NCBI GenBank assembly: GCA_010093705.1
Contig: MU006095.1
Coordinates: 248,001 to 312,000 of the forward strand
From: Patellaria atrata CBS 101060
Lineage: Eukaryota
Length of the DNA stretch: 64,000 bases
Reading direction: 5' to 3'
Under the pieces are notes generated by a model, which searched no databases, had not been told where the DNA came from, and was given only the letters and a program-made list of their open reading frames with translations. Position 1 is the first letter of the stretch, and every line of letters starts with the position of its first letter. Position numbers and translations under genes: made by a program. Shown here in pieces: positions 10,160-28,333 of this stretch.

Positions 10160-12330
10160 TCTCTTACATTGCGAAGATTGTTGCCCAGGGAGAACATATA
10201 ATGGCCAGTTTTGATCTTTGTGGCCAATTTGCCGCTTCAAATGCCGCGTTTGCCAGGTTGATCAGCATTTAGTCACTACTTGTATGGCATTAGCTCAGGA
10301 GATTTTATGGCATTATTGAAGGTCCCACCTTCTGCGCCAACAAGAGTGCTAGCTATGGGTCTATGCTCAACTCGTCCGTTGTACGGCATTTGTGCAACTA
10401 TTCGATTATCAGATGAGGTTCCAATTGGGCCTTCAGAAACGACTCCCAAGGTAAAACCAGCTGAGGCATATGCAGGACCGGAGAGATAAACTTCTCTCCA
10501 ACGGTGTGAGAAGAAGACGGTTCCCTACAGAATTAGCCACTGCTGAAGTGAAACTCTTCCTAAACAAACGTACTCATTTGGGAGCATCACGATCCTTTTC
10601 ATTAGCACTGCCATATGGTATAATCTTGATGGCATCGGACAAAGTTTCGCTGTTCTTTGAGAAGATATTCTCGTTGAACTAGTCCCTGAAGACTGAGTTC
10701 GACGAGACCTTGATTGTATTCATCCGTTATTGTCTTCTTCCCTTCGCCCCTTTCCGTATATTAGCACCGGTAGTTGGGGTTATGTCAAGAAGCGTTTACT
10801 AGCGATAGTGAACGATGGGTCCTTCATACGGTTCTTTAGCGTATTTTGCTTTGTAGTCTTTTCTGAACTAATCGAATTTGTGATGGTAATCGTGGCACAT
10901 CGGCCAGAACGCACTCTAAGGACTATAAGCAATGACCGAAAACCGTCCAGTACCACATACTCTCGCGAGATATTCTTTCAGTGACTTTCCGCCTACTTCT
11001 ATAGGTGGGCACTACACCCATCTCTCCGCAATGCTGAATATTGTTCTTTTAGCGCTGAGGACGTTTTCAAGAATGGTAATGAACTCGTCAACCATGGTTT
11101 AATGTGTCTTATTACCGTGCGGAAAGAAGTCCGCCGGGTAAAGAATTCTCTTGGGGAAGCTTGAGACATCTTCCAGCTTCAAGGTCTGTGATGCGAGGTG
11201 ATGGAGGGAGTCGAGGCTTCGAGTAAAGAATACGATAACATCAAAAGTCCTATAAAACATATGACTATGAATTGAACACCGTAGACATTATATCAGCACT
11301 TATCTTGAGTTAGTCTGTATCCCTCTCATTGAGGTGCTGTTGAAAGTGGGCCGAAGTGAGCAAAGTCCGTTGCATGTTACTAGAGCACGGATGCTTCCTG
11401 CAGCTATTCCAGAGTGAGTTTGATATTAAAAAAATAATAAGTTGAAGGGCTTGGAAGGCTTACAGTCTCCTGGAATAAAGTAGTCAAGCCACTCATAGCC
11501 CTCAAGGGACGAAGCAGCACCACTAGAGCTGCCCAATAGACTTTTTGATACATATCCCGGCGCGGATTCGTAGGACAATGGAAGTCGATATACTGGTATG
11601 TTGGCTCACCTAAACTGGCAGATGCTGTCATCTTCGTCTTTCCTACAATAACTGCACCTTTAGAGGTCAACTTCTCAACATAGTCGGCATTAGTGGCTGC
11701 TGGTCCGTAGAGTTCGATAAAAGTTTTACTCATCATAGTACTTTGGATGCCTGCCAAGTCAAAGATATCTTTAACATCCATTCGAGCGCCTGTTAATGGG
11801 TTGTCCTCCGAGTGTTCGGAATACAGTCTACTGGGGACAGCGACATGTTTCCAGATTCCGGGTACTGACAGAGTTCAAGAGGACAAAGGTGTGAAGTTTA
11901 TAAGACGATGTATTAGAACCTTGTACTTGGGGAAGAGAACTTATGTTGGCGGGGTAAGTAGATTATCTGGTATAACTGAAATCATGAAACCATTCAGAGT
12001 ATTTTCATATAACCGCCATACTTGGTGGATGTTCGATCCGTGAAGAAAGTATGGGCCTGGGGGAAGCGTTTTGTCGGATGAGATTAGCTCAGATAACCAA
12101 ACTTGTTTGAATAACTGCGAAAACTTATGTTGCTGAACTGCTTAACCTGACGTTTGACCATCAACATTCTGAATCACGAGTCCCTCGGTAAGTTTTAGAC
12201 TGAATACATCATCGAGGGACGAGTACTCTTCCCAAAGCTGAGTAAACCCGTCAGTATCGCTGGTAGAGTGCTCCGGAGCCAGAACGGTGACCGGTTGGAT
12301 ACTTCGTTCAGAAGAAAACCCAACCACTGA
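10160..12330 (-). pseudogene. Amidase-signature family pseudogene
   Basis: VKDIFDLAG, GAVIVGKTKMT, a frameshifted GSSSGAA, AGSIRA..CNGL.SLRPT and C-terminal RVEHRPI; multiple stops and frameshifts. Ends approximate. Confidence 0.8.
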
Positions 12331-15068
12331 TCCCTAAGTGCTCTCAGTCGCAGCAAGTTTTGGGATGTCTGATAGAACTTACCACTACATATGCATGCAG
12401 AATGTAGTGTATTCCGTCGACAATCTCCGTAACAGTACCTCTCAACGCCATATTGCTCAGATTTCTGTGGGTGAGAACAGTAGGGTGTAGGTATAAAATT
12501 TTGATTCTCTCCCGGCACGACAGGACTCAGAACTTGTTCTACTGCAGCCAAGCAAATCTTCCCGTGCTCAACATTTCATAGTTCATACCCTTGTGGGGAA
12601 ATTCTACTTGTGTACTAACGGAGACACGGCAGATTTTTCAGACAAAGAAAGTACAAACGGGTGGACACAGCGTAAAATTGAGTTAACAACTAAGGCGCTG
12701 CTGCAGACGTCTTCTCAGACCCGCCCTCGTCTCAAGATGAAACTCAGAAGGAAGTACAAAGCTAGGTATTTTACCTCCCGTCACCAAGTTTGTGATCTTG
12801 AACTAATCTATGATTATTTATAAAACCGCTTTATGGCGCTTCCTATGAAGTAGCCCCCTATTGCCCCTACCCTCTTCTATTCCTAGTTTTCTAAACCTTT
12901 GTGTACATGTACTCATTTAAACCCTAAATCCATGGAGCGATCTAGTCCAACATTTAATGACTGATCCACGCCCTTCTTTGAAAGCGACTGAAGTATTGTT
13001 CCTTGATTCTATCCGTGCTGTGTGCGATGAGAATGAATTATAATAAAAGCTATGTGCGATGGCGGAAGCGAAAAGACGAAGTCGCTGTGGGATAACTCTA
13101 TAAAGTGTAATCATCAACGGCAAACTAGTCTCATGATATTGTCTGAACGAGGAAATACAAAGCCGCTCTTGAGGGCGGAGGGTAGGTTTATCTGCATGTA
13201 CATTCGAAAGGTTAGCGATTCAGACCTGTCATTGGGGTGTGCTGTCTCTACTACTCATGTTCTTTGACTGACTAACGGGTATAACTTCTCCATACCGTCA
13301 TATCTTTAAAAACGGCGATAAGATGAGTACCGATATCTCTTCTAGATACTCAACGAAAGTGTAAATCAGCCTATTCAGTTGCTTTGAAGGCACTTCGGGT
13401 GGATTCAGAAAGAAGATTTGTGGAGTTCTCTAGTGGAAAAAGCGAGATTGGCGTATACAGATCGTCGCTTGGATGTAATTGTGATATTTCCCGTATGTTT
13501 GCACCCCTAGAGCTTGGAGACGATTGCTATGCGTGATAACCTCAGCCAATGGATTGTATCAACCAATTCAGATTCCATGACAACTTGTTCCCTATAGCAT
13601 AAGCAGCGAATAGTTGAGGATTTCCAGCGATTCGATGAAAGTGGTTAGTCGCTCTTCCCTTCGTGACCAAGCTTCCGTTCTTGACCCAAGGATGAAAGAC
13701 AAGCGATAGACTTGCCTTGAGTCTCGATTGCGATTCCTCAATAGTGTCTCTTCCCATAAAAACATCTATCTTTCAACGAAATCTTTCCGAGGAGTCCATT
13801 CTACGATGTAATCCGACTGAGAATCCAAATTTCCCAGTAGTGTAATTCGCGCGTTTAACTGACGGTCAGGATCGTGGAAGGAGAATGTTGGATGTGACCG
13901 TAAATATTTCACTTACTTGACGCACCGTCTGCTTCTTCTGAAAAATAATCATATGAGCAATGAGAAGGGGTCTTGATACCGGTTTCATTTTCCCTCTGAA
14001 GGTCTGGCTGATATGCTCATTGCTGGCCACTGCGAAAGCATGAGTTTCGGACAGCTTGTACTGGACAGTGTCGCGGTTCGGGAATGACAGAGCAAAGAGA
14101 TCTCCAGGAAATCTCTCTAGGAATAAAGACGTAGGTAGTATGCTTTTGACTGTAAAGGAGGACAATATCGTATTCGGTTATCTGGCCGTTCACGAGCCAC
14201 TAGCTTCTGTAGAGAGGTCCTCGACGAGTTTTGGGATTATTGGCCTTGATCCTGCTTATGGTCTTCGAGGCCACAGTCAGTGTACGCACCTGCTTTCGAA
14301 TATCATGTTTCCGTGAACCCAGATAGATCATCCGTATCGAAGAGAGCAGATTCAACTTAGAGTTTCCTATTAACTTTCGTTAAGCTCACCCAGGTGAGGA
14401 TCCTCATGGAGCTACAATGCAGGAGTACAGAGGTTGATTACAACGAATGTTGCCCGTTTCGTACTAGAATGAAGGAAGCGGTATTCAGTTCGATGCCGAT
14501 AAACATTTTACTGCTTTTATAAGAGAAAAGGTAGATTTAGAAATTAGCTGATGGCCATGGAAGCAAGACAGAATGTAACCCAGCGGAACGTCTAAGATTA
14601 TGCGGTGACCCATCTTCAAAGGAGATTGATCCAACATTACCACTTCTGACGCGGAACTGTGCCCGTCCTTTCTTGAAAGCTACAGCTCAAGGTTGTAAGC
14701 CTTGCGACACTGTCAGTCCTTGAATTGTAGTAGATCATGCCGGTCGAAACGGAGTGTATGGCTGCCCGCTTCATCGTGGTCTATGTCTGGCTCATAGTCG
14801 AAGCAGTTGGTGTCGTTTATCCATAGATCCTAAAATGATAGGTTGACAGGACATGTGTGTATGGGACAATCATGACAGCCTAGCGTTAGTAGAGCCACTT
14901 CTCGGGCCATAGTAGTTGCTTAAAGTACCGCGAGAAAGGTGGTAAAGCACTACAAGGTGTGGAGTAAATTGTGTATGCAATGCTAAGTCGAAAATTGAAG
15001 CTGACCGATGGCATAGCATTGGCAGGGCTACCTCTTTTCTTTAGTAACGGAATCGCTCAGCAACCCAT

Positions 15069-15348
15069 TGTCACGGGTTAGACCCGATAGGTATAAGTGC
15101 CTTGGATGATCCAGCGGCTTAGCTATGCTATACTTAAATAGAACAACTTACGTTGTTCTGGCACTTTCTCTTACATTCTTTCCTTAAGTTTAAGCTCCAT
15201 GCATGATCCAGTAGCTTAGTCATGTTGTACTTTAATAGAACAGCTCACGCTGTTCTGATACTCTCTTTTACTTTCTTTCCTTAAGTTTAAGCTTCATGTA
15301 CATACAGCAATATACCTTTCAGCTCTCATCTGAGGTTGAGCCTTGACA
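15069..15348. mobile_element. Solo LTR (280 bp) with 5-bp TSD CCCAT and internal 97-bp tandem duplication
   Basis: Termini TGTCAC...TTGACA; CCCAT at 15064-15068 and 15349-15353; internal repeats start at 15106 and 15203. Confidence 0.85.
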
Positions 15349-17296
15349 CCCATGGGAAAGGTGCCGCGAACAATAGGAGGCATAGTAGATCGCGTTGAAG
15401 CTTGTGGTGTCAAAATAAGCAAAAGTGGAGTCTAGAGGCGAGTGTAGAACTATGGACCGAACCGCTGCCTGTCAAGCCCTGTGCTAGTGTTGCAATGAGT
15501 TTGGGGTTTGCTAGGAGGTGAAAGCTTGGCAGCAACGACAACAATCATGCTCGGTAGCAAAGGTAAATATAGACTGGAATTCAGCAGCCAGCGGGGGGGA
15601 AAATAAAATTCTTGCATTCATGTGGCTTTTAGAAAGAGTTCCCCAGTGAACGGTATCACGAGCAGTCCCTCTCGGGACAGCCTTGACAGCGCAGTGAGAG
15701 AGGAGCATTGCCCACCACATCAGCATAGTCTCCTCTACGACCACTGGAAAGGTAATGGGTATCGCATTCTCTGTCAGCCTGCGTCCTTCTCTTTTCTTAG
15801 ATACTGCACAACACGTCCATACCGTCCGAGCTGGTAGTAGCCTAGACAGGATGAAGAACGTAGACATCGCATAGCGACCAAGTATTAGTACAAAAATGAC
15901 GGAATTTCATTTACATACCATTCGTGTTAATCAGCGCCTTTGTGCATAACTGCTTCGTCCCGTGAATTGCAGCGTGAATTGAAGGGCAAATATGCAAGCT
16001 TGCCCACCTCTGGGGCAACATTATACCCGTCTGGTTCCGCTTACGGAGAAGAAGCACTGCTCCTGCGGCATCTTACGGTTATGCAGCGCGGTGTATGCAG
16101 GAGATTCTATTGATTGGTTTGGGTAGGATGATACTGCGGTATCTTGTTATGACTTCGAAAGGCCTCGACCTCCTAGACTTGCCCATGTACCCGGCTTGAC
16201 CCCTAAGATCTCGTGTTAAAAAGGATTCGCTTTATGGTAAATTCTATAGATAGGTTGGTAACCCATGAAGGGACCTGGGCTATAGTCGAGATACGGCTGG
16301 AAGAGAAATGTTCGTACTTAAGCATCCCCTCGCCTTACTACACTGTGCGCTATCTGGCCAGCTTGCTGGTGTTGAAGAGTTATAGCTCTGAGTGGAGCCA
16401 TCTAATCTACGTATCTGCACTACCTTGAAGTGATGACTAACCCAGTGCTGTAGGGGTCTATCAGAGTGTTGGCAGCTAGGGGAAGGCGATGGCATGACAT
16501 AGATCATAACTATGATCATAGGACTCACCGAAAGTTCTTGAAAAGGCTCCTTGTAGACTGTTACTTGCCTCGAGAGACACTCCCGTCCTTCAGCATAGAC
16601 ATTAAGTGAAGCTATGGGCTCGCAGCCCCCTATCAGAGACCCGTCAGCGAATCACCCCCTGTTGCGCGTTGGTGCAGCGGAGGGCGGTCTACCACTAGTG
16701 CGTCGAGAGGGTTGTATTCTGCCTTCGGTCGGCACACAGAAGTTTTTCTTCTCTTCGGCCACACTCACCTTTTTGATCTCTACAACCTCATCCACGTCCA
16801 CTACCCTCATCCTTTCTAACACCGCGCCATCGTTCCTGAGACTTCATTTTATCAGAGAACAATAAGACATCTTCAACTATGCTCCTCATCTACTTTTTAT
16901 TTTCTTCGTGCGTCGTTTAGGTCGGTCTTGGCATTCTGTGCGGAGATTCGGCCGGAAGTGGTAACATCTCCATCCACAACTCTCTCAACAGTAAGTCTGC
17001 GACTGCATAACTGACGTGTCGAACGTCTAAAAAGGCTGAAGTTACTCGTGAGCTCAATGCTTGCTGGTTTTTCGCCCGAATAGACTAAGTCCGAAGAGGT
17101 CAGCGTCGTGGAGGTCGCGGTGGCGTACGACCAGGTAAGTCAGTCGAACCCCATTTCTTCTTATGCACCAAGCACAATCGAAGCTAGTAATAACTTCAAC
17201 TAACCATAATCGGCATATCATGGCAAGTTCACTCATTCAAGGTGATCACCTAAAAGCAAGTGTAAGCGTCTATCTCCACTGACCCAGCCACATTAG

Positions 17297-17351: not shown

Positions 17352-18040
17352 CAGCTATGTGAGTGTCAACATTAACACCAAGTAAGTTGTTTCTCCTTTT
17401 CTCTTATCTTTTCTAACAGACGTTGTCGAAATTCACCCACCTTCGCCTTCTGTCGTGCCAGGAGACATGCACCAACCACGAGATATTCCTTTACACTCAA
17501 AGTTATTAAGACCTACCCACAACAAACTGAGGAATGATACTGACTAGCATGAGTCTTCGCAGGTAATCGCCACTAGAACCCAACTATCTTCATGCTTATA
17601 CCTTCTTCAATTGTGCTCCTCAATCACTCAACCCATTCCGTCTCCCTTGCTCTTTCACAAACCACCAACTAACCCATGGATGAACATGGGCCAGATAGTC
17701 TCGCAAGAGCATCACCGTGATTAGGATCGTCTTCGGACATCTTGTGGTCTCATCACTGAAGTCTGATCCGAGACAAATGTCGGCATCTAGAAGGATGTCA
17801 GGGCTTACAGTGACCGCTTGTCTTAAGATATAGACATGTGGTTGTATTATAAGCCTAACATACACTTCGCGACGGGTCCCAATCTTGGTAAGTTAACTGG
17901 TAAGTTAGATTCACTCCTTCACCATTCGAAACATCTGATCAACTACTCCTTTGTGATTTGATTTTGAAACAGAAGGTCACCGAGGCCTTAGGAACTACAC
18001 TCCTAAGCCGACTAGTGAAGACGTGCTCTTTCCACCGTCC

Positions 18041-18175
18041 TCTCCTGTGTCCCACGGCAAGGGAACCGCAAGGGGCCCACCGAATTCTGGGGATGACCGA
18101 GAACAAAACCCTTAATTCTTGAGAAGCACATTCATGAGATCAAAGATGTGCATCTGAACATACAAGGGGACACAC
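18041..18175 (+). ncRNA. Candidate box H/ACA snoRNA
   Basis: Hairpin (tctc..gtccc/gggat..gaga), H box ACAAAA (18103-08), hairpin ccctt..gcacat/atgtgc..aaggg, ACA at 18170-72. Confidence 0.55.
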
Positions 18176-18493
18176 TACTTCAGGGCTGTTGACTCAACAG
18201 AAACTAGCATCCTGCGTCACCACCCACCGCTTGATGTCTTATACAGACCCAAGAGAAATTGGTCAATGCTTGAGCCGATCCTTTTTGGCATGAGCCATTA
18301 GCCAATCCAATATACGTAGGCAGTGAGGCTCGTTCGCATTTGACCCTGTCAATGCAGCTATTGGATACAAGCCATTATACCGAATGGTCATATTTGGCAA
18401 CATCGTAACATTTCGAATTATTGGTCTCCCATTTCCCTCTATTCTTTCCTTTGTAAACTGGTTTATAAAGTGAAGGCTAACAGTCGATAGGGT

Positions 18494-18574
18494 GGGCGAC
18501 GAAATCCGACTCTGCACCTCCAAGTGGTGTCGCCTGGTTACTGGTCTGATTTCCCCAGACTTGCCAACACAGAG
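18494..18574 (+). ncRNA. HDV-like self-cleaving ribozyme fold (near canonical)
   Basis: P1 GGGCGAC/GUCGCCU with G1-U wobble; P2 CUCUG/CAGAG; P3 ACC/GGU; L3 UCCAAGU; P1.1 CC/GG (18536-37); P4 GUCUG/CAGAC; J4/2 GCCAA with putative catalytic C18564. Confidence 0.7.
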
Positions 18575-18772
18575 AGGTCCGAGAGTAGCAATATCGGCGT
18601 GGGCATCGTAAGACACGGAACACCTGTTCTCCCATCAGGTATATCCTCATCGAACCCTTCGCCATTACACGTAAACATTCCCCCTGCACAATCTTTACTT
18701 AGTTAACCACAAGCTCTTAGATGTCGACACACGTATTACCGTTCAATGACCGACACTCTCTTTGATACTGCC

Positions 18773-20396
18773 GGCCAGAGCGAGATTGGACTTATACTCA
18801 AGTGATGAGTTTTTCTTGTTAGGCCAAAACCAAAAGCGTGTCACTACCGTCCCATGGTCAGGAACTTATGTCTTCAATACATTTGCTTCTATTTGTGACA
18901 TGCGACATCTCCAACTCTTTACGGAATAATCGTCAATGAAACGTGGAAATACTGGCGATTTAGTCTACCTAGCACATCCTCCTTTTCAACTGCGTAATTC
19001 TTGCTTGTCTCAGGTAACCTCTTATATCAGCCGGCGATCGGCCACGGCAAGGTTGAGGCTCATATTCCAGTGATAAGTCTTCCTTGTTAGGCCAAAATCA
19101 AAAGCGAGTCACCACCAGACAGGAACTTATGTCTTCAATACATTTGCTTCCATTTGTGACTTGCGACATCTCTGTCTCTTCGTCATTGCGCTGTGGAACC
19201 TTGCTAAGTGGAACATGGGATATAAGAGCCTGATTACTGACTTTTTCTTTTTAGGTCTCTGTCAGCCACGACACGACTGGGACTCATACTTCAAGTGATG
19301 AGTCTTCCTTGTTAGGCCAAAATCAAAAGCGTGTCACTACCGTCCCAGGGTCAGGAACTTATGTCTGCCATACATTTGCGCCTATTTGTGACACGCGACA
19401 TCTTTATCTCTTAGAATATGATTATTAGCGTTTTCTTTCATGTGTTGTCAACCACAACGAGGTAGGAGCTCATACACAAAGTGATGAGCTCTCCTTGTTA
19501 GGCTAAGATCAAAAGCGAGCCAAAGTCAGGAATTTATGTCTCTCCATATGTTTGTTCCATTTCTGACTATCGCGACATGTTTTATTCGAGGGCAGTGGGG
19601 CGCAAGAGGGGGAACTCCAGCAATGCTCAACACCTCAACGTGGTGCTGGAGTCTAGTAACCTTCTGAAGGTGAAGCTAAGATTGAGCCGGCAAGGATAAG
19701 GCGGAGCTTATACTTAAAGTGATAAGTTCTCCTTCTTATGCCGAGCCCAAAAGCCAGTCAAAGTCAGGAACTTATGTCTCCCATACATCTGTTCTATTTG
19801 TGACACGCGACATTGGTAATAAGGGCCGTGGGGCGCAAGAGAAGGAACTCTAGCGATGCTCAACATCTAAACGTGGTGCTGAAGACTAGTAGTCTTCTTT
19901 TGGAGGGGAAGCTAAGATTGAGCTGGTTACAAACAAGTAAGAACCCATCCTCAAAATGATGGACTCAGCTTGTTAGGCCAAATATCAAAAGCGAGCAGAG
20001 TTATAGAGCTTATGTCTCCCGTACATTTGCCTCTTTTAATGACTTACGACATCCATTTAGTATGTTTCGGAACTGTCATCTACAGGGTACCAGCGGAGCT
20101 CAACACCTCAACGTGATGCTGGAGTCTAGTAGCTTTCTTCTGGCGGTGAAGCAAAGATTGAGCTGACCATGATAAGATAGGAGCTCAATGCCTAAAGTGG
20201 ACGATTTCTTCTTATTAGGCCTAGAAAAATAGCGTGTGGGAGTTGAGCTTTTTTCGGTAGGACTCCCGTATCGCATGGCCTGTTCGAGGACAACCATATG
20301 TTTTTCCATGCATATGGACCATTTTTGGATAGGGGCTTCTGGCTTTACAAAGCCGTGCGAGCGGCTCCATCGTAAGGACGAAACACGCCGACATCC
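18773..20396 (+). ncRNA. Tandem array of seven H/ACA-like RNA units (18773-18910, 19040-19171, 19264-19403, 19450-19580, 19685-19815, 19921-20054, 20165-20396)
   Basis: Repeated hairpin - ANANNA - hairpin - cgACAnnn layout with compensatory changes; shared cores cttgttaggcc, caaaagcg, ggaacttatgtc, cgacat. The H box is degenerate in unit 5. Confidence 0.7.
19615..20163 (+). repeat. Three degenerate HDV-like folds (19615-19687, 19848-19923, 20088-20163) alternating with H/ACA-like units
   Basis: P2 GCUCAA/UUGAGC, P3 A(C/U)C/G(G/A)U, L3 U(C/A)AACGU, P1 CUCCAGC/GCUGGAG (best copy), J4/2 GC(U/A)AA; G1 and P1.1 GG are missing. Confidence 0.55.
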
Positions 20397-23300
20397 TTTG
20401 TTAGTCATGAGACGGTCATCCATGGAATCCAGAGGTATCGTATCAGACAACATATGAGCCGACGAGCGTAAACTAGAGAAATTTCCCTCGTTTAATCATG
20501 ATAGAAAGAGAGTGATAAGCCGGGAGTACGTTCTCAAAAGATTTGTCCTTTTCAGGACTCGGAATACCCAAACTTTGCAGATCGTTATCCTGGAACCGGG
20601 GTTCCCAGCCGCTCTTTCCTCACTGTTGTTCCACCAGAGCTGTTCAAGCCGAATGCGATCAAAGTCTTGATGCTAACTTTGATTTTGTGTATTAGGGTTT
20701 CTGATATGATGTATCAATCGGACCGAAATCGATGAGAGATTCCACCGCGGATTGACGATCTAGTAAGACAAAGGTAATGATTTAATGATACGCTTGCTGA
20801 CGGCTGATAGACTTGACCATTTCTGTCTTGGTGTAACCGGACCTGGGTTGACAGCTTGATTTAGATAGGTACAATGTTGGTGTGCTCTTTGTAGTGGACT
20901 GAGACTTGAACTGTTGGTGGATTACAATTGCGGTTTGGGGTTATTGGTCGGCTTATTGTGTCGTACTCGGGGCTCGATGGCTTATTTGTATGTAGTGTAA
21001 TGACGCAGCGAAATAATTGAAGTTGACTGGGTTCTGAGGGGCATGCCAGCCACCTTCTTGTCCACGCCGATTGAAGACCTCTTTAGAGTTTGGATGCCTA
21101 AAGTCACGCCGTCTTTATGTTGACATCTTTAACCTCATAAGCCTTATAACATGCTGATGGTACTGATCCCACATGGCCTCGCCAAGATGAAGATGTTTAG
21201 CTAGGAAAAGCCTTGCATTGAACAGAGAAAAATAGCGGAGAACTTTTCCCTATCTGGACTAATGAAGATTTAGAGTGCGAGCGAGTGGAGGCTTAGTGTG
21301 CTATTGGGCGACGGTCTTCATCCAGTTGATGGCCTTGAAATGTCGACTGTAAGTCATCCTTGTCCTTTTCTCTTAATGTTTCAGCTGGATCATATTTATA
21401 GTGACTATTGACCGATTTTCAGAAATGCGAGGTCTAATTCTTTAATATATCAGCCAGAAAAGAGCGTAAACGTGGTTGTGGATATCATGCGCTGCTTAAG
21501 AGCGTAGTTCCCGTGAGAGTAGGAGTTTCACAGGCGTGAATTTTGTTGTGAGGAGCCGAGCGGAGATGAGATGATCTGCCGGAAAGAATATCTATTGACA
21601 ATTTCCAACATAGGATATCAATCCCGGACGGCCCTAAGATAAGATGTCTCGGTAGAATGTACTTTCAACCTCCGGTCCGCAAGAGCTATCCTAGACTAAA
21701 ATGCAAGGTGTCTGGGTTAGACTCATTACGGATGGTGGATATTATTGATATCCATCACACCGCAGGACAACGTCCGAGTTCGCCAACTTCGGTTGAAGGA
21801 AGCGTAGACAAGAATTCTTTCCGAGTTCGATGAATCACCCATCGTGAGAAGCCTGGTGGAGAGAGACCCTCTCTTAATCTCAGCGGCCTCATTCGAATTT
21901 GAAGAGAAATAAAACTCAATCGTATAAAAGAAGGGCTCGTAATGTCGAGGGTTTCAGGGCCAAAAATGATTTTGTAAATCCATAGGGAAAGGAATACAGG
22001 GGAGTGAATCCGGCCTATCTTGCGGACCAAAAGGTTTTTGGAATCTCATTGTCAACCACAATGCAATGTAAAGGCAGCTTGGACTTTTGGTACGGTCGGT
22101 TGCTTAAGTAGTGTCCCCGTCTATGATAATTGTTAAATCGTAATGAACTGAGGGATGAGGTCGAAATAGCCAGTCGAGTTAAGAATGATAGCATGGATCT
22201 AAGCGAAGTGTGGCTGTCAGCTTTCGTCCCACTATGGCCTAGCTGATGCTAAGGTAAAGACCGAACACCAATCATCGCACTACTCGAAACGAACCGTGAT
22301 GCAGGAGATCAACCCATGAATGCTCGAAAGCAAAGAAAGGACTGTTACGGGTTCGGTTTGGTCGCCTTGAGCGGCATACATTGGCTGAGATACGTGCCAC
22401 TCCGTCAAGGTTCCTCTGTCTATAGAATGTAAATATTGTTGTGTGGGGCATCATCACCTTCACAACGAATCGCCTGCTTTGAGTCCTCTCATACCAGGAA
22501 ATACGTGTGTGATGTTGGATGAAGCATTTACTGGATATTCGCCGCGAAAGGCGTCCCAAACCGTATCGAAAACCAGTCCATTTCTGGTAGAATCTTCATG
22601 CAGCGACAGCAAGGACAGCTAAATGGATAATTAGAATGTTACTTATACCCTGTTATTGTAGTGAGAGACTCAAAAAATGGTGAAGGAGAGAAGAAAAGTA
22701 AGGGTGTGGTTAGTACGATCGGAAGCATGAATTTGCAAGCACAAGTAGTGCTTCCCTCAACGTGTCGTGCACACGAGAATGATTATAATTACCCCCGGAG
22801 CCTCATCATTATGGAGTAATCCTTGTTTAACGACCCCAGTGTAGAATGATTCTAGCATTGCGTTGTGCGCGGATCAAGTGGCGAAGGGTGGTTCTGATGG
22901 AAGACCGGGCCGAACTTGGGAGCAACAACCAAGCCAAGAAGATATAAAGGCTAGCGCGCACCTCTCGACAAGTACAACACGCTTATTGGGACGTAGATCC
23001 ATTAGATCATGAGGTAACAGTTTTGATTCTACTCATCACGATATGAACCCGCTCGAATATCGACTACAGCAAGACCTCTGGATCTATTGATGCACATCTC
23101 AGTGCACGCAAGCCGGAAAAGCGTATTTAATCCGCTAGTATCGCGACCTCTAACTCACTATTGTATTTTATTCATTCCTAAAAGAACCCGTAGAAGTAGT
23201 GATTGTGGAAATTGGCCTGATCGGCGCGTGTCCCTCGCTAATGTAGTTCCCATCCGCATTGTGAACGAACAACTCGCTACCGTATACCGTGAGATAGAGT

Positions 23301-26300
23301 CTACTGTAGCTGTAGATGCCGGAAGTGTCCGAAGCAAAGTCGGACCACTTCTTAGAAGTGAGCAGCAATGAAGCTGCGAGTGCAATATACCGGTCTTCCT
23401 TTTGATTGACTATGAGTTAGTATATCTGCATGGTTAGTTCACTCGCCGAGAATATGCATCTCGTCCAAATTTTGCTTAAAAACCACAAGGAACGCCCATA
23501 TCTATACACAGTGAAGCCGCTTTCTAGGCTCTATTGTATATATCGGTAATATAGGTAGATTCGTACAGGTAGCCAGCTTAGTGCGGTTTCAGTGGAGAGC
23601 CTCAGCGGATCGCGTTAGGCGGCATAGAGATTGTAGAGAGCTCTTCTTAACCAGTAAAGACTGGCGACTCCAAGAGATTGGCCCTGCTGGTAAGATGGTC
23701 CAATAAGCAGTGCAGAGTAAAGATGTAATTTGACCTAAGCAGAATGCAAGAGGTGTACGAACATACCTGATATTACCATAAATTCCTTTTGAATTGATTT
23801 TGAGAAATTAGGGACGAGTCATTGCAATATAAAGAGATTTCTGAAATACCGCATATTGCATAGGGTTTTCGTAGGCCCTCGGAGGAGACCCGTTTGCTGA
23901 GGAAGTCGCACAATGCCCCTCGGCCCGAAATCTCTCTTTCCCCCAACCATCCAAAACTCGGACAACTTACTACTAATCAAAATACTTTCTTGATCAACGC
24001 TTCGCCTATTCATAATCATAACTCCAAGAAATCTCTTTTGCTTCGCTCGAACGCTCAACTTCTTCAATTTCTTCTTCCCGTTGTCAGTATCACACGTCAT
24101 CAATCTTTTTTCTCGCTGCTCTCTGATATGCCTCCCGCCGCCCGTCAACAGCCGGAACGTGGAGATCTGCATCATGCTTCCCCTCAAGGTCATAATTATG
24201 ATCTTAATCTTCAATCTCGTCCCATATCTCTTCGCTCGCCTTAGGGAGCTCCTTGCAACAGCGCCACAGCAGTGAGCGCAGCGATACCCGGCCCAACAGC
24301 GGCATTATTCGCTCGCTGCTCGTCTCTTTCTCCTTTTCTGGTCCTTCTGCACCTCCTGTGCGTGACTGTCCTGGTAAGCTCTTGCTTTGCTCGCTCCGTT
24401 TTGTTTTCACATGCGTTTATAACTATTCTTCTAGCCGCACCGTATGTATCATCACCTTGAGGCTCACTACCAAGCTCTTTTCATCCCGGCTCTTGGATCT
24501 CCTGGCAACTAGCCCGCAAGCGAACCGTATGTGGGTAATCTTGAATATGATGGGTTATACTGAGAGCTGACGGCTATACAAAGAAATCCTATCGAAACCC
24601 TAGACAATAGCACAATGGGAGTGAGGCAATAATCACACCCGGCAACTGTTCCGTCTGAACAGTCCTAGGGTATCTAGGAGTGTCTAGAAATGCGTACACG
24701 TAGTCAAACACCTTAATAAATACCTTCTGAGCTTTGGGAAATCCAAATGACTTACTTTTGCACGGCCGTGATACATTGTAGACTGCTCAGGGGATGATTT
24801 GCTCACCTTTCCATATCCATACCCCATTTGTAAACTGCTTTCTTGCATTTCTAGTAATGAATTAAGTAACCTACCTTTATCGTAATCCATAATTTGCCCT
24901 TGATAGATGATTTTGAGACTAGACGGTACGCCAGAAGGGCCAGATTTTCGCGCGCATCCCTTGCGGGGTTCTTCCCTTGTTGATATTTGTCCTACATTTT
25001 TCAACTCACATTAGCGAACCAACAACCTCATAACAACTCCAGGCTCCTTTTATCATCTAAAGCCATCATTTTCCCTTTAATTATACCAGAGTACTTCAGA
25101 AATGCAGTTCTCTGATTCCTCTCTCTATCCACGACTAGATCAGCCGTGATGCTGCTATCCTAGCTTTTCCGGTGAACCAACACGCACCGGCATTTGACAT
25201 GAGCCACTACTGTGAGGATCTGTCCGTACCTATTGGTGGACAGTACATATAATGAAAGTTGGTATATTCCGAAGATCAGAGCAATTGTCGCAGTTATCTA
25301 TGCTCCAGCTATGGCGTTCCCGGCATAGGTACCAATATACAACATCAATCGACTTAAGCCACTACTAGACAATTCACATCAGTGACCCGGATCTGCCAGT
25401 GGGAAGTTCCACCATCCTGTCTTCGGCACAGGGCTCTCTCTTAGCGACACTAGTGGTTTGACACTGATTGGTAATCACACAGCAACTCTTCCGACGAGTA
25501 CGTGATGGATGCAACTCCGAGAGACACCGAGTCCGAGTCGGCAGACCGGATCCTATTCAATTACCTTCTCTGAGAGCACTTCTGCGAAAAAAAAAACAGG
25601 TAGTCTGTATAGCAAATCATCACAGATAGATTTGCGTTGTAACTACTTCACAAAGAATTGAGGGTTTCCCTCCTGATTCCCATGTTGCGAACACCTTAGC
25701 ATGGGATGGACCGAGAAGTGAAAGCTGGCCAAAGGAATAGCGAACCTTTCGGCGAGAGAAAGCTGAACGAGGGTTGCTCGTGAGCCCTAAGTTATCTTGC
25801 CAAGTGGAAATCGACATGGTTCACGATGATGAAAATTTGGTTGAACTGAGGAAGAACGACATACGGTTACGGAGCGGGTATGGTTCTCACGTTTCGAACA
25901 CCAAGGATATGATTTTCCTGGTTTGTTCCACATGCACCCAAAAGTCAAAGCGGTAGGAAAGACAAGTGAGCTTTGCGACAAGGGAAGGCCCAACAAGGGT
26001 CGCTCGCTCTCAGTCATCCTCGTAAGGTGCTACGGGATGGACGCAAAAGTCAAAGCCGTACGGAGGACCGGTGAATCCTCCAAGGTGGTACATCGAAGCA
26101 TTGTAATGGGCAAGGCCCAATCGACCTGAGCTGAAGAGGAAACGTAGGAAAGATACAATTTGGTTCAATCCAGGCGTAGAACCGTTGCTCCATGCATCTC
26201 CGAGTAGCCCCAAAAGTCGGTCCGTGATGATTAAAAGAGCTGGAAACAAAGACGTTGAAGGAAGATGGACGGTCCGAGAGCCAAAGGGGGATACTTGGAC

Positions 26301-28333
26301 ATTATTCGAGGCAAGGGATGGTCTGTCTCAGTCGACAAAAAGGATGCGGGGCACTGCACACGAGAATTGTGCAGATATCATCGTTTCATCTGTATCAGTA
26401 GAGCCGATGCAGTCAACAATGGAAATCGACAGATGGTATTTCGACGATAGCAGTCCAATGAAGCCATCACTTTCTCCCTTCCCGGGAAGCAACACTTTGC
26501 TTCGTGGGATAGGACGCTCAACTCTGTCATTATTTAATCTTCTCTATCGTCTGCAGGAACAAAGCGTCATGTACTGTAAGGTCCACTTCATCATAGGTTG
26601 CGGAGAGACCGTGCAGTCGCATTTGTACAGACGCTGTGAATACCCTCATGAGAGCAGCACACACGCCCCGATATTCTCAGGATCACACTGGGTGGAATAT
26701 TTTGCGCAGTGGAAATATTCTCTCTCCAATGGACCGTTTATCACTCAATTCAGGAGGGGAAAGACATTACACGAATCCGCTCTTTATCAAGACGAGAATT
26801 TGGAAATGGACATGAATTCCTTCTTCTTTTTCCTTTAACGAAGTTAAGGTGCGGATACGTATGCGCGACGAACTTATTGAGCGGTCGATCCTGGGGACCG
26901 CTACCCTACTACGGGGCTCGCTACCCTCCGGCTCAGATATCGGTAAATTCATATTGGTAGACTCCCAAAATGGCCTAAAGGGAATAAACTAGCCAGGGTT
27001 CATGTCCAAAGGATAAAATGGTGGATCAAGTGTCCTGGCATTATAGGATGCAAAGTCTTGGAGGCGTAACATGGGACACCTTCGTGATAACGTGACTCTA
27101 TTAAAGTAATAGGAGCACTAACCCGCTTCAACTGATGAAGGTTGATGAGAGTTTCTTGAGGAGAGAGAATATATTGGGATGCGTTGCAAGTATCGTCTGT
27201 AGATTGATATTGCCATCTATCAAGTTCCCTCAAGTTTTGCTAGAGCCCTAGGACGGCATGAACGGAATCATCCCGAGGACCAAACACCTGGCGGTTTCGG
27301 CCCGACTCTAGGGTTGGTTCGGCAGAACGTAAATTTGGATGGGGTTGTCGCTCGCGCAGAGTCATGTATTGTGCCGAAATAGGATAAAAGCATAAGAGGG
27401 TTACAGAATCCCGCATAGGTTCCAGTGTGTTGAGGGCTTTACCCAGCCCAGAGGTCCCGATTGACTACTCCGGGCATCAATCATCTCAGTCTTCAGCTCG
27501 ATTACTCCGATATAAGTATTATAGCAATATTGAATCGAGGTTCTTTGTACAACTCTAAGAAAGAAAATGAGCAAGGGCCTGTTGCTTCTGATTCCGATTC
27601 TAACGCCGGTTCCAACGTTGGACCAGGTAATCTCACAGTCTAAATTTTTGGTCCGGATCATACTGACTGGGAACAATTCATCGGACGGGGCACCTAGATT
27701 AATAGCGGGATGAGAACGAGAATCCAAGGAGACCGGTATTAGCATGGGCTCCACTCCAGGTTCCAAAACGAGAGACGGTAAGAGAAATGAGTTGCCAATC
27801 ATCGATTGGTGATATTATGGGATTCGCAGTGTTGTTGAAACTGGCTCGTCCCGAGATAGTTACCGTTTGAGTAGCTAAAAAATCCTCACAGGAAGTCCGG
27901 CTTTAGAAATGTCTTTTGAGTGAGGTGTGAGCAAGTGATCACAACATTTTATTGCAGATAGAATATTTATCTACGGGTACCACCGATTCATGATCGTCTA
28001 AGAGACTGTCAGTGATTTTGTCCGGTTTTTGGAAGAAAGAGAATACAACGTACTGTAGAAGAGCTGGCATAGGACCCGATATGACATCTATATCAGCAAA
28101 TACACAGAAAACCGAGGTGTCTAGTATTCGTGCAATGACAGGAATTAGGACTTCAATGGGAAGTGGTTGTCCTTTTGAAAAGAGAGAAGTCCCAAAGAAA
28201 ACAGGATAGATTAGAATGAGCTAGGGAGTAGAGATTCGAAATGGTGTTAGACTCGATGAAAAATTGCAGATATTCATAACTTCCGTCCCGGAGTATACCT
28301 TGGTGCTCTCGGCTTACCGATGGTGTAAAGCAT

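Follow-up and report, generated by a model that had tools for sequence, protein, structure and literature searches.

Positions 18494-20396 of a 64-kb window of Patellaria atrata CBS 101060 DNA (GenBank assembly GCA_010093705.1, contig MU006095.1, positions 248,001 to 312,000 of the forward strand) hold an array of seven related two-hairpin RNA units, interspersed with four self-cleaving ribozyme folds of the hepatitis delta virus (HDV) family. We propose that this is a polycistronic locus for a lineage-specific two-hairpin small RNA, whose transcript would be cut by its own HDV-family ribozymes. We give this reading a probability of roughly 45%. The window is the whole stretch of DNA analysed, coordinates are whole-window positions, and all of the array elements lie on the + strand:

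18494-18577, + strand: H0, conventional-type HDV-like ribozyme fold; predicted cut 18493/18494.
18578-18767, + strand: H0-A1 interval, no recognised element; folding z -0.17; no match to the unit or ribozyme covariance models described below.
18768-18915, + strand: A1, two-hairpin unit; ANANNA 18827-18832; ACA 18905-18907; unit model 135 bits; folding z -2.83 (+ strand), +0.95 (- strand).
19035-19176, + strand: A2, two-hairpin unit; ANANNA 19095-19100; ACA 19166-19168; unit model 134.7 bits; z -2.78 (+), -0.55 (-).
19259-19408, + strand: A3, two-hairpin unit; ANANNA 19320-19325; ACA 19398-19400; unit model 134.6 bits; z -1.93 (+), -0.66 (-).
19445-19585, + strand: A4, two-hairpin unit; ANANNA 19506-19511; ACA 19575-19577; unit model 130.2 bits; z -3.55 (+), -3.15 (-).
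19581-19614, + strand: A4-H1 trailer of 34 nucleotides (nt), from three nt past the A4 ACA to the H1 cut; 76% identity to the H2 trailer.
19615-19687, + strand: H1, intact fungal-variant HDV ribozyme by sequence; predicted cut 19614/19615; J4/2 cytosine 19676; ribozyme model 79 bits.
19684-19820, + strand: A5, two-hairpin unit without ANANNA; ACA 19810-19812; unit model 136.5 bits; z -3.09 (+), -1.19 (-).
19848-19923, + strand: H2, fungal-variant HDV copy with lesions; ribozyme model 53.2 bits.
19920-20059, + strand: A6, two-hairpin unit; ANANNA 19982-19987; ACA 20049-20051; unit model 116.8 bits; z -1.60 (+), -0.58 (-).
20088-20164, + strand: H3, fungal-variant HDV copy with lesions; ribozyme model 44.1 bits.
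20160-20396, + strand: A7, unit whose upper 5' stem is degenerate and whose 3' hairpin is expanded; ANANNA 20223-20228; ACA 20391-20393; unit model 33.1 bits, E 1.3e-4 over 20160-20322.

The order on the + strand is thus H0-A1-A2-A3-A4-H1-A5-H2-A6-H3-A7. An earlier note on this DNA had described this order, strand and spacing, together with a duplicated distal [ribozyme + A unit] module of about 235-240 bp, and the sequence, a repeat finder and both covariance models agree with it. The repeat finder places the distal modules 233 and 240 nt apart and recovers three distal ribozyme-like copies and six or seven copies of unit segments. Tandem Repeats Finder returned no rows for the array, because its copies share only 66-88% identity.

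On the + strand, the A units represent a genuine structured RNA. When A1-A6 are folded together with RNAalifold, each unit of about 135-150 nt takes the form of two irregular hairpins with a single-stranded hinge and a tail. A covariance model built from these six (the unit model) recovers them from the 64 kb at 117-137 bits, adds A7 at 33 bits (E 1.3e-4) and finds nothing further. Neither the remainder of the window nor the 14 metagenome loci discussed below yielded a further A-like unit; a single extra match scored 8.9 bits (E 7.6). A7 retains the hinge and the CGACAT tail, and its expansion is closed, as read from the sequence, by a GCGTGT/ACACGC stem.

Covariation among the aligned copies, to which the earlier note had pointed as a check, is evident. 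Across A1-A6, 88.6% of 220 paired cells are in fact paired, against 84.8 +/- 1.0% in shuffles. Double changes that keep the pairing occur in 10 of 37 pairs, compared with 4.6 +/- 1.3 in shuffles, and none of 500 shuffles reaches the observed value, although these counts are flattered by a structure derived from the same six paralogues that were counted. Controls in which the partners were slid by one to three columns gave only 0-3 such pairs. The fold is also strand-specific, with a lower folding z on the + than on the - strand in six of six units (A1-A6), and the units contain 23 G.U cells versus 11 A/C cells. Furthermore, the single-stranded parts include two invariant motifs, the hinge CAAAAGC and the tail CGACAT (CGACAU in RNA), to which two invariant loop or stem stretches can be added; CGACAT occurs exactly seven times in 18401-20500, once in each unit tail. 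The compensatory changes, the invariant hinge and tail, the strand asymmetry and the constraint on the ribozymes described below show past selection on the RNA, without proving present function.

Two other identities for the units were considered and set aside. If the conserved GUGAUGA of the 5' hairpin is read as part of a C/D-box RNA, the motif falls inside a stem-loop, and there is no terminal stem or consistent D box. As for separate RNA polymerase III units, only A4 is followed by a run of at least four T residues.

The earlier note had called the units H/ACA-like, and in outline this description stands. All seven follow the order hairpin, hinge, hairpin, tail; ANANNA lies one nt past the 5' stem in six of them (A5 lacks it), and ACA lies one nt past the 3' stem in every one. 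Together with the size of 135-150 nt, these features raise the possibility of a cluster of genuine H/ACA pseudouridylation guide small nucleolar RNAs (snoRNAs), released by self-cleavage. We regard this as highly unlikely. No open two-sided pseudouridylation pocket is present: the strands that would line the supposed 5' pocket instead pair with each other (columns 14-20 with 51-57 of the six aligned units) in copy-dependent spellings. This pairing, helix 1, is 86% paired and carries three double changes, and A7 can form the same helix in yet another spelling, as read from its sequence. Because the supposed pocket strands covary as a helix, the 5' hairpin is a long interrupted helix rather than a pocket. 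The 3' hairpin of A4-A6 has no more than a 4-5-nt bulge on one side where a two-sided loop would be needed, and in A1 the extra 5' strand folds into a small hairpin of its own. Among the four matches that Rfam returns for 18000-21000 (E up to 10), none belongs to an H/ACA family. From the modelled folds we conclude that the A units are H/ACA-shaped but lack the defining pocket, and are probably not conventional pseudouridylation guides; the guide-RNA identity suggested in the earlier note is therefore not supported. The units may still assemble with H/ACA proteins.

A 5' hairpin built as an interrupted stem of 22-25 bp with a loop of about 10 nt also recalls a tandem hairpin precursor for Dicer-dependent small RNAs, either microRNA-like RNAs (milRNAs) or small interfering RNAs (siRNAs), with the ribozymes trimming the precursor. 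Rfam returns a weak mir-31_2 match at 19688-19743, although its 20 bits fall far below the gathering score of 97. The conserved loop, hinge and tail and the covarying stems are typical of RNAs that form ribonucleoproteins rather than of siRNA precursors, and we see only a slight chance that the array is such a precursor.

The ribozymes that precede A5, A6 and A7 have a known kind. In the sections on which we draw, Li & Breaker 2017 (BMC Genomics 18:785, PMC5640933) report 230 fungal HDV ribozyme variants from 26 species, which differ from the general consensus in a C-G at the cleavage site, a loop E that replaces part of P4 and an extra nucleotide, mostly C, between P2 and P3. They further report in vitro cleavage at the base of P1 for two species and 'widely variable gene associations', and assign the variants no biological role. 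On sequence traits, H1-H3 are members of this published class. All three, and H0 as well, have the extra C between P2 and P3; the cut site is C-G in H1 and H2, while H3 begins with U.G; and a loop E, AGTA/GAA (AGUA/GAA in RNA), judged by sequence only, is flanked by pairs in all three. The nested double pseudoknot of P1, P2, P3 and P4 is complete in H1 and partial in H2 and H3.

In H1 all helices are complete, with P1 at 7/7 pairs starting C-G, P2 at 6 bp and P3 at 3/3. Lesions have accumulated in the other two copies. In H2, P1 contains one mismatch and a wobble, P4 opens with G/G, and position 2 of L3, which is C in H1 and in all nine distinct metagenome sequences described below, is A. H3 starts P1 with U.G and has a further P1 mismatch, a C/A mismatch in the 3-bp P3 and a U-to-A change in J4/2. 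Since the P3' and J4/2 positions concerned were fixed by the pattern used to collect the metagenome sequences, that set cannot show their invariance, and for these two positions the evidence goes no further than a broken P3 pair. A second covariance model (the ribozyme model) was trained on H1 and nine metagenome ribozymes, with H2 and H3 outside the training set. It gives 79 bits to H1, itself a training member, and finds the untrained H2 (53.2 bits, E 1e-11) and H3 (44.1 bits, E 3e-9), with nothing above 11.3 bits in the rest of the 64 kb.

H0, which heads the array, is of a different build. No sequence in the whole 64 kb matches Rfam at gathering scores. At E up to 10 over 18000-21000, the four matches include sub-threshold HDV-family hits at H0 and H1: drz-agam-1 (RF01787) at H0 with 22.7 bits against a gathering score of 37 (E 0.19 in 3 kb, 1.1 in 18 kb), and HDV-F-prausnitzii (RF02682) at 19615-19689, over H1, with 18.3 bits against 44. 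H0 thus falls short of the Rfam threshold for the HDV family. It is nevertheless the sole Rfam lead of the conventional HDV kind in the window, and it can form a full nested double pseudoknot. Read from the sequence, its helices comprise P1 at 7/7 with G1.U, P1.1 as CC/GG, P3 as ACC/GGT, P2 of 5 bp plus 2 bp, and a plain P4 hairpin. The G1.U, the GG/CC P1.1 and the plain P4 are as in conventional HDV-like ribozymes (RF01787, RF02682); H0 differs from these in its sub-threshold score, in the extra C before P3 that marks the fungal variants, and in a J4/2 cytosine (18564) that lies five nt before P2', again with the spacing of the fungal variants. The ribozyme model ranks it fourth in the window (11.3 bits). 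A strict descriptor (G1.U, and L3 starting with 'UC') matches the window once, at H0, against a mean of 0.2 in 20 shuffles, although this descriptor was written after H0 had been seen. The position of H0 at the head of the array and on the same strand strengthens its case, and we put the chance that it is a working ribozyme, on this evidence, at about two in three.

All four HDV-family folds therefore lie on the + strand where the earlier note had placed them. Its labels, 'canonical' for H0 and lower-case 'hdv' for the distal copies, need one correction: the folds are real, but H1-H3 belong to the published variant class and H1 is intact, whereas H0 stays below the Rfam threshold.

Within 18463-18492, two signals stand just upstream of H0. 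One is a TATA-like TATAAAG, about 25 nt before the predicted cut; the other is a GCTAAC that resembles a branch point (18476-18481), with a TAG behind it that ends at 18490. The transcript could take its 5' end from a promoter start or from a 3' splice site. Intron hosting was checked, and no 5' splice-site motif was found in 18001-18494.

Relatives of the variant ribozyme were sought with a pattern drawn from H1 and H2, whose fixed positions are confined to part of L3/P3', the loop-E strands and J4/2, and which leaves the 5' strand of P1, P2, and the stretch from the 5' strand of P3 to the start of L3 (C-ACC-TC) free. The metagenome scan gave 14 loci with nine distinct ribozyme sequences; the same pattern had no matches in a viral collection and none in 185,579 prokaryote genomes. 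In all 14 loci P1 is a perfect 7-bp helix that starts with C and comes in three spellings, and all 14 have the extra C and the ACC/GGT P3. P2 is uninterrupted over 6-8 bp in 13 of them, in several spellings, and in the remaining locus, L002, a mismatch beside P3 is followed by six pairs. As the P1 5' strand, P2 and C-ACC-TC lie outside the pattern, their complementarity and invariance are real evidence for the fold. Loop E in these matches is present by construction, because it was part of the search pattern.

Several of these loci carry features of their own. L002 (- strand) has an intact ribozyme with a 93-nt unit repeated 3.2 times and a 13-nt unit repeated 7.7 times just upstream, and a second, degenerate ribozyme (1025-1106, 29 bits) 1.46 kb downstream on the same strand. 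The idea that its 93-nt repeats are decayed ribozymes gained no support from the ribozyme model, whose sole extra match was that degenerate downstream copy. L014 is related to L002, and in both, tandem small-hairpin units of about 93-113 nt precede the intact variant ribozyme. These units end in GACAT, as does the A-unit tail, possibly by chance. In L001, an intact fungal-variant HDV ribozyme (1277-1350) is directly preceded by five small tandem hairpins (1140-1276), which have covarying 3-4-bp stems and share an identical purine-rich loop of 7 nt. L004-L013 make up 10 of the 14 loci (five distinct sequences) and come from contigs of 27-41% G+C, one of them 160 kb long; every ribozyme there is preceded by an A-rich run and has a long P4. 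These AT-rich contigs indicate that the loop-E HDV variant also occurs in an AT-rich, presumably eukaryotic, lineage.

Ribozymes and units are tightly joined in the distal half of the array. The 3' strand of P2 in each variant ribozyme runs without a spacer into the first stem of the next unit. For H1 this strand is TTGAGC (19682-19687), followed by the first stem of A5, and the unit model begins inside it, at 19684; the earlier note had seen this sequence abut or overlap the next hairpin, and it does. On the other side, the distance from three nt past the ACA of the previous unit to the cut site is 34, 32 and 33 nt for H1, H2 and H3. Between the distal modules, identity is 78-83% in the ribozyme, 62-69% in the 5' hairpin, 71% in the 3' hairpin (A5-A6) and 52-76% in the trailer. 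This is a weak to moderate sign, and it suggests from sequence comparison that the ribozymes have been under constraint since the duplication.

It is possible that the array is instead a decaying relic, in which a ribozyme-bearing module was once duplicated in tandem and the copies are now drifting, unexpressed or functionless. Consistent with this, helices are broken in H2 and H3, A7 contains a large insertion and its upper stem is degenerate, A5 lacks ANANNA, and the array sits in about 13 kb without an open reading frame (ORF) recognisable to Pfam. Simple drift would not be expected to leave both hairpins paired through compensatory changes in copies only 66-88% alike, nor the hinge and tail invariant, the ribozyme segments less diverged than their neighbours and the folding asymmetric between strands in six of six units. 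We therefore consider a relic unlikely.

The distal half of the array also invites comparison with selfish elements. In the passages of de la Pena et al. 2020 (PMC7761336) that concern us, the non-long-terminal-repeat (non-LTR) retrozymes and hammerhead satellites of animals are tandem repeats of 150-300 bp, each with a self-cleaving ribozyme, which are transcribed and cut to monomers. By analogy, the 233-240-nt [ribozyme + unit + trailer] repeat could be a retrozyme- or satellite-like element whose monomers would carry a 5'-OH and a 2',3'-cyclic phosphate and could be circularised by transfer RNA (tRNA) ligase. Its unit length and tandem ribozyme layout match the non-LTR retrozymes of that account, and the metagenome variant ribozymes of L001 and L002 likewise lie beside local tandem repeats, L002 with its second, degenerate ribozyme.

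The copy number of the array bears directly on this alternative. Two public runs hold the stretch, as DNA contigs from one sample of one study. In one of these (X1), the contig depth over the array is 320-359, against 313-318 in the flanks. Since the two are equal, the array is single copy and not a dispersed repeat, at the identity of at least 95% to which the depth test is limited. At that identity, the repeats are not dispersed transposon fragments, one of the refuting outcomes that the earlier note had named. A retrozyme would be expected in many copies, with intact ribozymes in most units; here the depth is that of a single copy without dispersed copies at 95% identity or more, a variant ribozyme precedes only three of the seven units, and one of those three ribozymes is intact. 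For about 8 kb to each side of the array, Pfam detects no reverse transcriptase, transposase or further transposon domain, the monomer folds modestly better than shuffles (z -1.76) and is not rod-shaped, and invariant single-stranded hinge and tail motifs would be unexpected in such an element. The animal elements, as that source presents them, are hammerhead-based, multi-copy and dispersed, with mostly intact ribozymes, whereas this array is HDV-based, confined to a single locus and lacks a ribozyme at four of its seven units. A retrozyme-like origin thus appears quite unlikely.

From the anatomy of the array, the membership of its ribozyme folds and the covariation of its units, all of which are observed, we infer how the polycistronic locus would be transcribed, cleaved in vivo and turned into products. 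An A unit would have been duplicated seven times, together with HDV-family ribozymes, at a single-copy, non-coding locus on the + strand. One long + strand transcript would be made, from which H0 would cut away the capped 5' leader. H1 would then separate units, and H2 and H3 would do likewise as far as they are still active. The upstream product of such a cut would be a unit carrying a trailer of 32-34 nt that terminates in a 2',3'-cyclic phosphate and could be trimmed to the protected tail; the downstream product would begin with a 5'-OH and a compact ribozyme fold that directly abuts the first hairpin of its unit.

Taken further, this mechanism would make the locus a ribozyme-punctuated small-RNA operon on a eukaryotic chromosome, in which HDV-family ribozymes replace RNase III or splicing between H/ACA-shaped RNAs, and each is kept on the downstream product as a 5'-OH pseudoknot cap. 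We offer this stronger version tentatively and regard it as rather unlikely. If it is true, the products would constitute a new class of chimeric ribozyme-plus-two-hairpin RNA of about 200-240 nt.

Several observations weigh against the proposal of a ribozyme-cut small-RNA locus. As A1-A4 have no ribozyme between them, self-cleavage cannot be required for the release of every unit. Only one of the three variant ribozymes is intact, and H0 does not reach the Rfam threshold. The helices of H0 alone are not specific: a descriptor limited to helices matches at 24 starts in the window, where 20 shuffles give 26.6 on average. With TATAAAG about 25 nt upstream of the predicted H0 cut, transcription could start inside H0 itself. 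Fisher tests of segment conservation in the distal modules give p values from 0.009 to 0.44 depending on the pair, and are significant in only some of them. The covariation counts, as noted, profit from being made on the paralogues that defined the structure. Finally, with both strands of the 14 metagenome loci scanned, the unit model finds nothing A-like, although 290 nt or more of sequence is available downstream of seven of the nine distinct ribozymes there; the ribozyme-A combination thus belongs to this lineage and is not general for the ribozyme class.

The proximal half of the array was searched for traces of lost ribozymes. The spacers among A1-A4 measure 119, 82 and 36 nt, and nhmmer searches with an H1-H3 profile and with H0 (E up to 10) found no ribozyme relic in them or in the H0-A1 interval. 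The only match of the ribozyme model in the A1-A4 region is one of 9 bits (E 5) at 19432-19516, over the start of A4. Two weak local similarities, of 18604-18623 to the A7 tail (z 3.4) and of 19228-19239 to H0 (z 3.5), were left unused.

Known fungal snoRNA clusters are described as released by RNase III, exonucleases or splicing, and not by ribozymes. The A units resemble H/ACA snoRNAs in outline, ANANNA and ACA motifs and size, and in a polycistronic arrangement like that of fungal snoRNA clusters; they differ in having neither open two-sided pockets nor an Rfam H/ACA match. PMC2377427 describes C/D snoRNA clusters of Aspergillus fumigatus. The fungal HDV variants of PMC5640933 share with H1-H3 the extra C and loop E, and with H1 and H2 the C-G cut site. 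As far as its main text goes, that paper does not use the word 'tandem' and describes neither arrays nor a downstream two-hairpin unit; in the present array, moreover, H2 and H3 are lesioned.

A parallel comes from phages. According to the parts of Kienbeck et al. 2024 (PMC10879173) relevant here, theta ribozymes of gut phages are HDV-like, lie beside tRNAs in arrays and are proposed to process the tRNA ends in place of protein enzymes. Both systems thus set HDV-like ribozymes next to small structured RNAs in arrays. As portrayed there, theta ribozymes are found in phage, have a minimal HDV build and cut adjacent to the tRNA, whereas the present array is eukaryotic, its ribozymes are full-size with loop E, a trailer of 32-34 nt precedes the cut and no spacer separates the ribozyme from the downstream unit.

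The earlier note knew of no described arrangement like this one. Our literature search likewise found no paper that joins HDV-like ribozymes to arrays of snoRNA-like or other small RNAs in a eukaryotic chromosome, although such arrays may exist among the 230 variants of PMC5640933. The component parts are familiar: the ribozyme class is published and, in the experiments reported in that paper, cleaves in vitro; phage ribozymes beside arrays of small structured RNAs are known, as are the tandem ribozyme repeats of animals and plants.

The locus provides a concrete context for the fungal HDV variants: its four ribozyme folds share one strand and are interspersed with copies of a small RNA that covaries. 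Should these RNAs exist, the locus would be the first chromosomal eukaryotic case found of self-cleaving ribozymes punctuating a small-RNA array, in parallel with phage theta ribozymes beside tRNAs, and its units would form a new fungal RNA family with the H/ACA outline and without guide pockets. If the locus is silent, it remains a clear example of the tandem duplication and decay of ribozyme-bearing modules.

The surroundings of the array are poor in recognisable genes. The long reading frames of the window encode Surp/PRP21, Hsp70, sugar transporter, class II tRNA synthetase and kelch products, which are eukaryotic families; taken with the ribozyme class, they point to a filamentous fungus as the probable origin. 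In a Pfam search (E up to 0.01) of the 29 ORFs of at least 70 amino acids in 9.6-26.1 kb, 27 had no family, and none with a family lies within 12.6-26 kb, about 13 kb around the array; the - strand ORFs that overlap H0 and A7 are among those without a Pfam family. The two positive ORFs are an amidase fragment at 11407-11874 (- strand) and one weak match.

Two further repeats lie in the window. At 15065-15350 there is a short dispersed repeat, with a contig depth of 26752 against about 317 in its flanks (X1), which corresponds to some 80 copies in each genome. At 15065-15073 and 15348-15350 many contigs come to a break, and within the repeat a 97-nt sequence is present twice in tandem (15088-15281, 78% alike). 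The whole resembles a short interspersed nuclear element (SINE) or a miniature inverted-repeat transposable element (MITE). At 25706-26074, just before an ORF at 26107-26838, three copies of a 38-nt repeat, 66-79% alike, are spaced 226 and 105 nt apart.

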